Of a DNA stretch of 64,000 bases, positions 9,841 through 44,005 are shown piece after piece (the first letter of the stretch is position 1; each line of letters begins with the position of its first letter). Under the pieces are notes generated by a model, which saw nothing but the letters and a program-made list of their open reading frames with translations, did not search any database and was not told the DNA's origin. The stretch is from positions 128,001-192,000 of IMG/VR virus record IMGVR_UViG_3300042010_000129, one strand, 5' to 3'. This stretch comes from a virus (lineage: Duplodnaviria > Caudoviricetes). The translations under genes and the position numbers were made by a program.

Positions 9841-9933
9841 TTTTATTGCCCCGTTTTTACAGCTGATCCCACTGCGCGAACAGCCGATCCATTTCACCGT
9901 TGTGGTTGCCCATGGGCACAGCGGCGCGTTGTT

Positions 9934-10125
9934 TTACGGTTCCTGCTGCCAATCGGCTTCGATCAGCTGCACTTTGAAGTTGCGCGCCAGTATTCGGCTT
10001 TCCGCCAAGGTGAATTGTCGGGCGCGTAGTCTGCTTTTGCATGTGTAAACCTTGTCTTCGGTAATCTTGAAAATGTAGGAGCCTTCTGAAAGCCTCGCTA
10101 CATATTTACAGTTTTTGTTGTCCAT
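9934..10125 (-). CDS. hypothetical protein
   Basis: 63 aa, in tandem with neighbours. Confidence 0.5.
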   Translation of the reverse strand: MDNKNCKYVARLSEGSYIFKITEDKVYTCKSRLRARQFTLAESRILARNFKVQLIEADWQQEP

Positions 10126-25952: not shown

Positions 25953-26204
25953 CTAGTAGAAACACAAAAGAAGAAACAGCAGACCGAACATCACCATATT
26001 GGCGCGTTCGACTTTGGTTGTGCTTGGATCGGTGGCGCGTCCAACAAAGAACAGCGCAACCACACAAACCAGAAAACCGATGATACCTATCACAGCGTGC
26101 GCCGTTGGAATGCGTAACGCAGTTCCAAACAGCACTATAAGCAGCCCCACAAAACCATAGTGGGGGCGCATCCATACAGCATGCCTAGCTTTCATTGTAC
26201 CCAT
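25953..26204 (-). CDS. small three-TM membrane protein
   Basis: Three hydrophobic segments. The AAGGGA RBS lies within the upstream RNA stem. Confidence 0.7.
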   Translation of the reverse strand: MGTMKARHAVWMRPHYGFVGLLIVLFGTALRIPTAHAVIGIIGFLVCVVALFFVGRATDPSTTKVERANMVMFGLLFLLLCFY

Positions 26205-26212
26205 CGAAACTT

Positions 26213-26312
26213 CCCTTAATCCGTGAGGGTTGTAAGACCGGGCAGCGAATGCCCAGCCGCCATACTGGCATCGCTAGGCGTCCGGTGTCAAGTTCTCCAC
26301 ACGGATCAAGGG
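26213..26312 (-). ncRNA. putative structured cis-regulatory RNA (long imperfect hairpin)
   Basis: 13-bp closing stem CCCUUGAUCCGUG/CACGGAUUAAGGG, inner stems ACCGG/CCGGU, GCCUAGC/GCUGGGC and GCCA/UGGC. The mismatches become G-U pairs on the minus (transcribed) strand. Confidence 0.6.
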
Positions 26313-26339
26313 TTTAGGCTCTGAAGCTGCTGTATGGCG

Positions 26340-26798
26340 TTAGGCGTCGGTAGCCTCGGCAAGCAGGGCCGCGACCTTTGCCAGCTTCACGGCTTCGTGC
26401 TGCTCGGGCGACATGATCGAGGCCAACCCGGCGTCGATATCGAACCACTGACGTTTGCGCAGTTCGAACTCTTCCCAACTCACATACGACAGGAAAGAGG
26501 CGCGATAGAAAATCTCACGCTGAATCTTTTCGTCGTGGGTATCAGTTGCCGGGTAATGCAAAACTTCGTCGTAAATCTTTTCGTGCAGTTGAATGCCGAC
26601 GCCTGCCTCTTCAGCATATTCCTTCTTGGCGTTTTCTTCAGGCGTCAAACCTTCCTCGACGCCACCTTTCGGCAAAACCCACAGGCCGGGGAATTTCAAA
26701 GACGTGACCAGCATCACTTTCGAAAGGGTGTTATCCAGCATCACGGCGCCGGAAGTGGTACGGGTGTAATTCAGGTTTTCAGATTTTTGAACGAACAT
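26340..26798 (-). CDS. Nudix hydrolase (Ap4A/DIPP-like)
   Basis: Nudix box WVLPKGGVEEGLTPEENAKKEYAEEAGV, with C-terminal W.E...RKRQWF. Confidence 0.88.
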   Translation of the reverse strand: MFVQKSENLNYTRTTSGAVMLDNTLSKVMLVTSLKFPGLWVLPKGGVEEGLTPEENAKKEYAEEAGVGIQLHEKIYDEVLHYPATDTHDEKIQREIFYRASFLSYVSWEEFELRKRQWFDIDAGLASIMSPEQHEAVKLAKVAALLAEATDA

Positions 26799-27069: not shown

Positions 27070-27812
27070 TTTTCCTCCCGTGGAACCATAAGGTAAGTCA
27101 TGTCGGAACCGAATACAGAACCGAACAAATCCATCAAATGCGGATCAACCGTGAACTTCAGATCGAAGTTATCGAAATCGACGCGGATCTTGTAGGCGCG
27201 TGCCGTCATGTGGTGCCACACCATGTGAAAATATTCGTCCTCACAGGTATTTTCAGGCGGCACATAAAGTTCACCACGGCCATACACAACGCGCTGTGCA
27301 TACGCAGCATGCGTGACCTGCCGAAACAGTTCGTGAACCAAAACGCGACAGCGCTGAATTTCAAACTGATCATCGACAGGGTGTGCGCTTTGCAACGTTT
27401 TCGCAATGGTGAATTTCAATTCCGTTTCGTATTCATGGATAAACGTTTTAATAACGGTCGCCATGCCGATAAGGTCAGACAGCGCCACGCCACCGGGAAT
27501 GCCCCAATGCAGCACAGGGCCGAACCCCGGCTGTAAGTGCAGGATCGAATAACCATTGTGAAAAATCCGGTCACGGTCTGCTGCTGGCAGATGCTCAAAC
27601 CTCATGTTTATTTTTGGATGCGTCCGCCCTATTGGATCACGCGAATTGTGCAGCCAGTCTTCGACCAGCGTCTTCACAATAAAATGTGAATACTGCTGGG
27701 GCTTGGCCGCGCAATAAATCATCGCGTGATTAATTTTCGCATCTGGCGTAATGCACGCAGCCCTGTCGAACGTCAAACTGAATTTCGGGATAGCACATTT
27801 GAGAAACATCAC
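27066..27812 (-). CDS. hypothetical protein
   Basis: 248 aa. Confidence 0.65.
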   Translation of the reverse strand: MMFLKCAIPKFSLTFDRAACITPDAKINHAMIYCAAKPQQYSHFIVKTLVEDWLHNSRDPIGRTHPKINMRFEHLPAADRDRIFHNGYSILHLQPGFGPVLHWGIPGGVALSDLIGMATVIKTFIHEYETELKFTIAKTLQSAHPVDDQFEIQRCRVLVHELFRQVTHAAYAQRVVYGRGELYVPPENTCEDEYFHMVWHHMTARAYKIRVDFDNFDLKFTVDPHLMDLFGSVFGSDMTYLMVPREEN

Positions 27813-28195
27813 AGCAGCCCCTTTTCAATCAAGTAGTCTTCGATTGCTTCACGTGCAACCCGGTCAATTTGTTTTGCGCGTCGGCCTTTCTTCGCCAGTT
27901 TCATTCGTTCATGGCGTTTTTTCATCAGCCGATCATGCAGCACCATTCCAGCAACCCAACCGGCCCCAGCGCCTACGCAACTGAAAAGCGAGTAATACGG
28001 ATTTTCCATCTTGAGTGCAGCAACGCCAATCGTCAGCATAATAATCAATTCGCAGGCGCTCATTGCAGACCCGCCACAAAATGCCATGATCTTGTGACCG
28101 CCTGAAGCTGCCTTGCTCTGCATCCCACGTAAAAGAGTGGTGACGAACAAAACACCACTCATGGACAATACAGTTGTCGCCATGTGCCAATCCAC
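27809..28195 (-). CDS. three-TM membrane protein with basic tail
   Basis: Three hydrophobic segments. Confidence 0.65.
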   Translation of the reverse strand: MDWHMATTVLSMSGVLFVTTLLRGMQSKAASGGHKIMAFCGGSAMSACELIIMLTIGVAALKMENPYYSLFSCVGAGAGWVAGMVLHDRLMKKRHERMKLAKKGRRAKQIDRVAREAIEDYLIEKGLL

Positions 28196-42941: not shown

Positions 42942-43949
42942 TTAAGTCAGCGATGCGCTACGGCCTGCCGCACGTTTTGCAGAAATAGGCATTTCGTCGC
43001 CCATCAAAATAAAACGCGAATTGCAGCGGGATTCAACAGCATCACCGATAAGGTCACTGACGTATTCCGTCATGAACCCAACGGTGCGGCGTTTGACCAC
43101 CATGTTTTCCAAGGAACGCGCAAGAAAGCTGCGCGTAATACCTTTGATGTGGATCAGGTCGTCGTCTTCCGCTGGAAATGCTTCTTCGTTACTCACGCGA
43201 CCCACGCGTACAGGGCAACCCGTCGCACGGCAGATCAAATCTTCCAGTTCCAACACTTTGATGGAAACGCCGGATACGGAAACGTCGGAATCCTCTTTTT
43301 CCTGTTCGTGCAGCTTGCGGTATTTCACCCGGTCGTAATCCGGGGCGCAGGCGTATTCGTGTTCGTCGTAGCAGACCTTTACGCCTTGCTCAGGAATGCA
43401 GCGCGCTACAAATGCCAGCACATCAAGAAGGTCGTTGTCCTCTTCCGCCAAATTGATCATGGCGCCAGCGAACCACAACAGACTGCCACGCAGGACAAGC
43501 GTTTTCTTCGAACTGGATTTGCGCAGGATTTGAATTTTGAAGCCGGTCGCCTCGAACACCAGACTTTCGATTACGACGATTTGCTGAATTGAATGATCGT
43601 CAACTTTCAATTCAGCCAAACTACGCTGGTCGCTACGGCTGATTTTTTCAGCAGCCGTTTTTGCAAAATCCGGAATGTCTTGTTGTTCTTCCAACCACAA
43701 ACCGACCTGACGCAGACGGTCAATTTGATCCAGCCAGATTTCTTGCGCGTCTTCGTCGTGCCCGTCCATATCGACGTTTTTGCAATCGTACAGCACGCCG
43801 TTCCGCGTAACGTTATGCAATGCCTTCGCAAACCGGGAAGGCCCCAACGTGGAAACCACGTTAGCTAATACGCTCTCTGCTAAATCCATAGACTTACGTC
43901 CCATGCTCAAACTTCCTCTAATGCGTGAGTGCTTTTGTTTCGGGCACAC
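42942..43949 (-). CDS. hypothetical protein
   Basis: Acidic. The start may be the internal MGRKS. Confidence 0.65.
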   Translation of the reverse strand: MCPKQKHSRIRGSLSMGRKSMDLAESVLANVVSTLGPSRFAKALHNVTRNGVLYDCKNVDMDGHDEDAQEIWLDQIDRLRQVGLWLEEQQDIPDFAKTAAEKISRSDQRSLAELKVDDHSIQQIVVIESLVFEATGFKIQILRKSSSKKTLVLRGSLLWFAGAMINLAEEDNDLLDVLAFVARCIPEQGVKVCYDEHEYACAPDYDRVKYRKLHEQEKEDSDVSVSGVSIKVLELEDLICRATGCPVRVGRVSNEEAFPAEDDDLIHIKGITRSFLARSLENMVVKRRTVGFMTEYVSDLIGDAVESRCNSRFILMGDEMPISAKRAAGRSASLT

Positions 43950-44005
43950 AATGGGCCAGCCGCCACACTACCATTCGTCGGCCCATGGGTCAAGGTTGTG
44001 AGGCC

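Follow-up and report, generated by a model that had tools for sequence, protein, structure and literature searches.

A candidate transcript-origin-dependent translational gate, with a sigma-70-type promoter between its arms, at a small membrane-protein gene of a Lu11-like jumbo phage

Introduction

How is a small phage gene translated when the message that runs into it from the gene upstream can fold its ribosome site into a long helix? This question is raised by a locus within the 64,000-nt stretch of DNA analyzed here (the window; positions 128,001 to 192,000 of IMG/VR record IMGVR_UViG_3300042010_000129). The source phage is a giant (jumbo) phage related to the Pseudomonas phages HRDY3 and Lu11. 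The timing of gene expression in jumbo phages of the Lu11 type seems not to have been studied so far, and no transcript maps for them were found in the literature and sequencing runs that we searched. A preliminary description of the window had reported a structured RNA burying the Shine–Dalgarno (SD) sequence of a membrane gene, and had suggested a translational switch, a thermosensor or an RNase III site. The decisive feature, absent from that description, is a sigma-70-type promoter located between the two arms of the helix.

Results

A conserved small membrane-protein gene follows a Nudix gene

Every gene around the RNA element lies on the minus strand of the window. The order on this strand is a Nudix hydrolase gene (26340..26798; Pfam NUDIX, E = 1.3e-12; phrog_10313, E = 2.3e-33), a 135-nt spacer, an 83-codon ORF (25953..26204) and a 268-codon ORF. 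Using the neighboring 268-aa protein as a handle, we gathered 21 loci from isolates, IMG/VR, metagenomes and Logan assemblies, across which this protein showed 44–100% identity. The order of Nudix gene, spacer, small TM gene and 268-aa gene was retained in 21/21 related loci, with 108–170 nt between the Nudix and membrane genes. Genome-wide pattern searches were run on three complete related genomes. A search of the window for tRNA and tmRNA genes found none.

The 83-aa product carries three predicted membrane helices, in agreement with the preliminary description, and the ORF is present in all relatives; judged by this conservation, it is a real gene. The protein gave no Pfam or PHROG family and no informative Atlas match. 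Its N-terminus reads MGTMK in all loci except the Lu11 clade; in Lu11 itself the N-terminus is different and longer. The initial 15 nt of the gene (ATGGGTACAATGAAA, 26190-26204), which include a second in-frame ATG, are identical even at synonymous positions in all loci outside the Lu11 clade, in contrast to the rest of the protein, which diverges (window and 16 relatives). A further membrane protein of 128 aa is encoded two genes upstream of the Nudix gene (27809-28195, minus strand); it matches phrog_30210, a family of unknown function (E = 3e-49), and weakly matches the holin family phrog_7045 (E = 1.3e-4).

A long-range helix covers the ribosome site

On the minus strand, CCCUUGAUCCGUG (26312..26300) pairs with CACGGAUUAAGGG (26225..26213) to form an outer stem of 13 bp with one G-U pair, which covers AAGGG of the AAGGGA SD (26217..26212) of ORF 25953..26204. 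The 151-nt minus-strand RNA folded with a minimum free energy (MFE) of -54.8 kcal/mol (z = -2.73; 0/200 shuffles as good), compared with z = -1.04 and 30/200 shuffles as good for the plus-strand control fold. The stems named in the preliminary description (ACCGG/CCGGU, GCCUAGC/GCUGGGC, GCCA-GUA-UGGC and the hairpin 26257..26237) all exist and appear in the MFE fold. The burial of the SD by a 13-bp outer stem was likewise confirmed, with pair probabilities of 0.94–1.00 in 151-, 311- and 501-nt contexts, and the helix was found to reach further than described. For the window, pairing of the 34 nt that precede the -35 box with a 40-nt segment spanning the start codon gave a 20-bp duplex of -28.6 kcal/mol, a value reached by 0/300 dinucleotide shuffles of the 5' arm, and this extended helix covers both the SD and the AUG. 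Helix, folding and opening energies given here are thermodynamic predictions.

The 5' arm, or 'anti-leader' (26296..26320, minus strand; core CCCUUGAUCCGUG at 26300..26312), is located wholly before the -35 box, and its duplex partner is the start region. The 3' arm (26199..26229, minus strand) comprises CTCAC (26223..26227), the SD AAGGGA (26212..26217), the AUG (26202..26204) and the first codons, and is nearly invariant in relatives. As a rule, the pairing of GCCUA with UGGGU forms one end of the helix and the base adjoining the -35 box the other; the UGGGU lies within the start of the membrane gene, and its pairing accounts for part of the 15-nt invariance noted above. Arm duplexes of -19 to -37 kcal/mol were found in 16/19 loci, and in 13 of those at most 5/300 shuffles of the 5' arm were as good. 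The helix measures 18–28 bp in 16 loci, with shorter forms of 14 bp in L024 and 12–17 bp in the weak Lu11/L011 duplexes. In most lineages it amounts to quasi-continuous double-stranded RNA of 20–28 bp with internal loops.

The recurrence of the structure in relatives held for the outer helix, which is found in most related phages, and failed for the named inner stems, which are not conserved in close relatives. This bears on the suggestion that the element senses a ligand (a riboswitch, perhaps for a nucleotide) or temperature (an RNA thermometer). Such a switch would fit the sequestered SD and the alternative inner folds of the window sequence. However, the inner stems fail in near relatives, and the interior is variable except for promoter elements and one 5' hairpin, leaving no conserved core that resembles a ligand pocket. 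In the long RNA, the hairpin 26237..26257 had a probability of 0.00 and GCCUAGC/GCUGGGC one of 0.41. An Rfam search at permissive thresholds returned only microRNA and snoRNA noise with E > 1 (best E = 1.3, microRNA). The mean outer-stem pair probability in silico was 1.0 at 20–42°C and 0.99 at 50°C; that is, the helix is predicted to stay paired throughout the range in which a thermometer would be expected to act. The Nudix gene, taken earlier as a hint of a nucleotide ligand, would merely be the upstream gene whose transcripts read through. We therefore consider a sensing switch highly improbable.

A sigma-70-type promoter lies between the arms

The sequence enclosed by the two arms carries the elements of a host-type, extended -10 promoter. 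The -35 hexamer TTGACA (26286..26291, minus strand) is invariant in 21/21 loci. In the window it is followed, after an 18-nt spacer, by the extended -10 element (26262..26270, minus strand), consisting of TG (26270..26269), c and CAGTAT (26267..26262), of which A2 and T6 are invariant. From promoter geometry, transcription is predicted to start about 5–8 nt after the -10 hexamer, at 26254..26258 on the minus strand. The -35/-10 spacer is 17 nt long in the 21 loci except for the window, its twin L009 and L021, where it is 18 nt, and the sequence between the boxes is freely variable. The distance from the -10 to the ATG is 57–60 nt in 18/21 loci. These features agree with a sigma-70 extended -10 promoter (TTGACA, a spacer of 17 ± 1 nt, TG at -15/-14, A2 and T6), the TGn directly before the -10 hexamer being found in 15/21 loci. 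TG is absent from L027–L029, the three most distant loci, which carry the near-consensus hexamer CATAAT; this is the compensation expected of sigma-70 promoters. It is also absent from L018–L020, where the weak hexamer (CAGTAT or CACTAT) is kept. As a phage late promoter the site fails: the motif is sigma-70-like (TTGACA/TGn/nAnnnT), and no T4-type late motif was found in it. Taken together, the sequence comparisons identify an invariant sigma-70-type promoter between the helix arms.

Across all clades the -35 box marks the end of the 5' arm, and in 21/21 loci the promoter is placed, at the sequence level, such that its transcripts would lack the 5' strand of the helix. Because the promoter is nested in this way, we interpret the element as a transcript-origin-dependent translational gate rather than a ligand or heat switch.

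TTGACA is rare in the window. It occurs only 5 times in 128 kb (both strands), where base composition predicts about 30 copies and a Markov model 10, and only the copy described here precedes a proper -10. Sigma-70-like sites as a whole are depleted in the window (4, compared with 13.3 ± 3.5 in shuffles), and TATAAT is depleted likewise. Several restriction-type hexamers, each expected about 30 times, are wholly absent from the window, among them ACCAGG, ACCTGG and CCAGGA, which contain CCWGG; AGGACC and AGGTCC, which contain GGWCC; and ATCGAT, AGATCT, ACTAGT and AGTACT. Their absence suggests strong restriction-site avoidance.

The pattern TTGACA-N14/15-TGnnAnnnT gave 18 matches in the three complete related genomes, all on the gene strand, compared with 2 for the reversed-pattern control. 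One of the 18 was annotated as a sigma-70-like promoter by the depositors of Lu11 (Lu11 record, 9922..9948); it shares with the promoter class TTGACA, the 17-nt spacer, TGn, the A2/T6 of the -10 hexamer and a consistent gene strand. The Lu11-like phage group has been reported to encode sigma factors (PMC7412058). From its sequence type, the promoter presumably acts early and depends on host RNA polymerase.

The promoter and leader form a reused cassette

In one related genome, 6/7 other matches to the promoter pattern carry the same cassette as the membrane-gene locus. The cassette consists of the promoter, a GC hairpin right after the predicted start, ACTCAC, 6–7 nt, (A)GGGAAGTT(T), 3–5 nt and the ATG; TTGACA lies 87–92 nt from the ATG in six of seven copies and 75 nt from it in one. 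In its short form, the leader reads CTCAC, 6–7 nt, GGGAAGTTT, ATG. A search with CTCAC-N6/7-GGGAAGTT-ATG gave 16 matches in the three genomes, 15 on the gene strand and 1 on the opposite strand, and the reversed-pattern controls gave 0. The leader is common to 4–7 genes per genome (L030 and L032–L037 of the related genome G001; HRDY3 and Lu11 records).

The GC hairpin of the window (26237..26257, minus strand) is located at the predicted 5' end of promoter-initiated mRNA. RNAalifold recovered it in 10 relatives, with one-sided changes only (G-C/G-U/A-U), and reading of the other same-class cassettes revealed an equivalent hairpin after the -10. As these cassettes share both features, the near-invariance of CTCACGGATTAAGGGAAGTTT and the hairpin 26237..26257 are traits of the promoter–leader class. 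The hairpin had earlier been cast as the competing half of a switch, a role that its place in the other cassettes and its probability in the long RNA speak against. By the same comparison, the 3' arm is a generic leader, not special to the membrane gene.

A second cassette of this class was found in the window (43902..43993, minus strand): TTGACC, 17 nt, TGg-TAGTGT, a GC hairpin, ACTCAC, GAGGAAGTT and an ATG at 43904. It is the ortholog of L030 in the related genome, and L030 lacks a complementary arm upstream (z = +1.0). Behind the first gene of the second cassette lies a good terminator-like hairpin (42932-42910). Upstream of several HRDY3-like cassettes, we also observed GC-rich palindromes (TATACGCGTGCG..GCGCGTA, then GGGGCC..GGCCCC; L001 1960-1995, L003 2562-2600, L006, L034 and L036), which are absent from the window's shorter spacer and may be terminators without a U-tract, or insulators. 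In the literature searched, no description of a leader-bearing promoter class was found for Lu11-like phages. The invariant ACTCAC box could be a signal for translation, decay or antitermination.

The upstream arm is specific to the membrane gene

Among the 7 cassettes of one related genome, strong upstream complementarity was found only at the membrane-gene locus (z = -4.5); the upstream regions of the other cassettes gave five z values between -1.1 and +1.0 and one of -2.5. In the related genome, the 34-nt 5' arm paired with its own leader at -32 kcal/mol, compared with -8 to -21 kcal/mol for other leaders. The far better fit to its own leader argues for action in cis. Action of the arm in trans on other early leaders was considered and dropped on the same values.

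Whether the two arms have evolved together was addressed in two ways, with different outcomes. Column-wise covariation in an unbiased MAFFT alignment of 19 loci was nil: 76% of cells were paired, compared with 75% in column shuffles, with 2 double changes, while slid controls on this alignment fell to 26–47%. RNAalifold on 10 main-clade loci gave a covariation term of -0.49 kcal/mol and no pair changed on both sides. It follows that sequence conservation maintains most of the helix, the 3' arm being conserved in its own right as a generic leader. An alignment-free test, in contrast, showed that cognate arm pairs fit better than non-cognate ones (p = 0.0007 with 10 lineages; p = 0.0004 with 14; p = 0.04 without the most divergent clade). 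When the arms were arbitrarily split into inner and outer halves, the cognate test was not significant (p = 0.22 and 0.08). Column by column, then, there was no signal above shuffles, but the cognate test (p about 0.0004) points to co-evolution of the arms.

Several lineages provide examples of this co-evolution. In L028, CCGU/ACGG has become CCGC/GCGG (U-A to C-G); in the L017 clade, a G-U pair has become G-C; L022 has a private 8-bp extension; and in the L027 clade the partner is re-registered, so that the 5' block pairs directly with the SD. Nearly every clade retains the block (T)TGATCC of the 5' arm, including those in which it shares bases with the Nudix stop codon.

This conservation also fits a DNA element, in which the arms would be inverted-repeat operator half-sites near -50 and +40, flanking the promoter and bound by a regulator of phage or host origin, possibly with looping of the DNA. 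In the core TTGATCC / GGATyAA, each side is conserved in sequence and the columns hardly covary, the 5' block is unchanged in the L027 clade although its partner changed, and the antisense duplex is at least as stable as the sense duplex in the Lu11 and L017 clades. Overall, however, the sense strand is favored, its duplex being modestly more stable on average (p = 0.037). The 5' block lies 12, 16 or 21 nt from the -35 box, spacings that do not keep helical phase, and the 3' 'half-site' is the generic leader, which is found at promoters without an upstream partner. The complementary extensions in L022, L027 and L028, lineage-specific and of unrelated sequence, fit pairing and not a protein motif. 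We regard an operator as quite improbable.

The gate model and its exceptions

In the model towards which we lean, on the strength of sequence, modeled energies and analogy with T4 genes e, soc and I-TevI, the membrane protein would be translated only from messages that start at the internal promoter. The spacer holds a complete sigma-70 extended -10 promoter and leader, a cassette type reused at several genes of Lu11-like jumbo phages, and only at the membrane-gene locus does a 25–30-nt anti-leader, complementary to the CTCAC-SD-AUG of the leader, lie just upstream of the -35 box. A read-through mRNA from the Nudix gene would contain both arms and could form the interrupted helix of 20–28 bp around a loop of about 70 nt; this would hide the SD and AUG, and the membrane protein would not be made from it. 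An mRNA from the internal promoter would start downstream of the 5' arm; carrying only a short hairpin at its 5' end and a ribosome site that is less occluded, it would be translated. Expression of the membrane protein would thereby be tied to the activity of its own promoter. What the sequences show is the helix, the promoter signature, the nesting of the one in the other and the conservation of both; the transcription start, the read-through transcription and the difference in translation are what we infer in this model.

In silico, the SD and/or AUG is paired in upstream-started transcripts, with the helix present in 16/19 loci, and in the window the stretch that leads from the Nudix stop codon to the 5' arm has no terminator-like site. 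Opening the region from SD to AUG in the window was predicted to cost 16.1 kcal/mol in the long RNA, compared with 7.9 kcal/mol in RNA from the predicted +1. The difference between long and short RNA was 7–10 kcal/mol in 9/19 loci (the window clade, most of the HRDY3 clade and L027) and 4–6 kcal/mol in L023 and L025. In L004, L017, L024, L026, L028, L029 and the Lu11 pair it was only about -1 to 3 kcal/mol; the values of -0.6 to 2.7 kcal/mol obtained for L004, L017, L026, L028 and L029 count against the gate. So does the promoter type: an early, host-type promoter, as this one looks to be, would give the silencing of read-through messages a temporal logic unlike that in T4.

Arm complementarity is mostly lost in the Lu11/L011/L024 clade (z = +1.1, +1.0 and -0.5), and the gate would accordingly be dispensable there. 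In Lu11 (L002 2436-2470), the 5' block lies instead in a 9-bp hairpin, GCCCUUGUC paired with GACAGGGGC, that includes the -35 box. A loose scan of the viral collection with the 5' block and promoter gave only chance matches: of 118 loci, 3 survived a crude filter by regular expression, and no locus had the look of a relative. Four wastewater runs labeled RNA-Seq yielded a few contigs of 151–757 nt, probably DNA and partly from relatives, which hold no information on starts or strand.

A helix of this kind might also be cut by RNase III in the read-through mRNA, separating the Nudix message and either freeing the SD or destabilizing the downstream RNA. RNase III sites of phages include helices of this length with internal loops, so that the 20–28-bp interrupted helix is in range, and it spans a gene boundary as such sites do. 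Cleavage gives no account of the complete promoter that is always nested in the loop, nor of the loss of the helix in the Lu11 clade, and no comparable complementarity is present at the other cassettes of the same genome. Although cleavage is compatible with the gate model, we consider it unlikely as the explanation of the element.

The position of the Nudix stop codon raises a further alternative. In the L017/L025/L026 clade the stop lies inside the 5' arm, and in the L027–29 clade it abuts the arm. Ribosomes terminating there would open the helix, which suggests coupling and not silencing in these two clades and counts against the gate. As a general explanation, coupling would mean that the 5' arm is melted by ribosomes completing the Nudix gene, and that the membrane gene on that mRNA thereby becomes open to translation. 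In the window, however, 20 nt separate the stop codon (26340-26342) from the first paired base and 27 nt separate it from the core, and in the HRDY3-like clades it is about 50–60 nt away with extra hairpins between, a distance beyond the reach of a terminating ribosome. Coupling also needs no internal promoter. It is plausible only where the stop touches the 5' arm (the L017 and L027 clades), and for the element as a whole we hold it to be decidedly unlikely.

The gate may, finally, be one part of a larger scheme. The cassette of about 90 nt (-35/extended -10, +1 hairpin, ACUCAC and the GGGAAGUUU SD) might define an early regulon of Lu11-like jumbo phages whose shared leader RNA is recognized by a phage factor acting in translation, decay or antitermination; the cis-acting anti-leader, located in the 3' UTR of the gene upstream, would then be a second gate that limits the membrane protein, which may be harmful, to a short early pulse. 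We put this forward tentatively, as possible but doubtful.

Discussion

Helices that hide ribosome sites in long transcripts are known from other phages. In the account of T4 genes e, soc, 49 and I-TevI given in PMC3014915 (citing McPheeters et al., 1986), the ribosome site lies in a helix in transcripts from upstream promoters, and promoters within or after the 5' strand give translated transcripts, as was shown experimentally. The present locus resembles these genes in that the SD and/or AUG is predicted to be paired in upstream-started transcripts, that promoter placement would free the mRNA of the 5' strand, and that the element is conserved among relatives. It differs in architecture: T4 uses a short local hairpin and a late promoter (TATAAATA, gp55), whereas here the arms are 25–30 nt long around a loop of about 70 nt, and this loop holds a whole sigma-70-type promoter and 5' hairpin. 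The likely timing here is early, compared with late in T4, and the present case is predicted from sequence where those of T4 rest on experiment. Because the promoter is sigma-70-like and not late, we describe the element as working like the T4 cases and do not file it as homologous to them.

PMC3014915 also cites mobE of phage Aeh1, for which an RBS-sequestering hairpin was shown experimentally (Gibb and Edgell, 2009). There, too, a gene carried within a longer transcript has its ribosome site concealed by an RNA hairpin; the phage family and gene class are different, and the present case is a prediction.

Relative to sigma-70 extended -10 promoters in general, the promoter class described here is distinguished by its fixed leader (5' hairpin, ACTCAC, GGGAAGTTT, ATG). 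The lambda N leader and the RNase III sites of T7 early mRNA are long interrupted helices at gene boundaries of polycistronic phage mRNAs and can involve the downstream SD. They act through cleavage and have no promoter in the loop.

The locus offers a concrete regulatory design, in which a host-type cassette is reused and an anti-leader placed upstream of it would tie translation to the origin of the transcript. If the model is true, the logic of the T4 'e-type' genes also operates in an unrelated lineage of phages and with a promoter of the early type, and the 83-aa membrane protein stands out as one whose expression is confined to a controlled window. Work in Pseudomonas would gain a strong, compact promoter–leader part in the cassette, and the promoter signature, together with the CTCAC...GGGAAGTT leader, can be used to locate early transcription units in this phage group.
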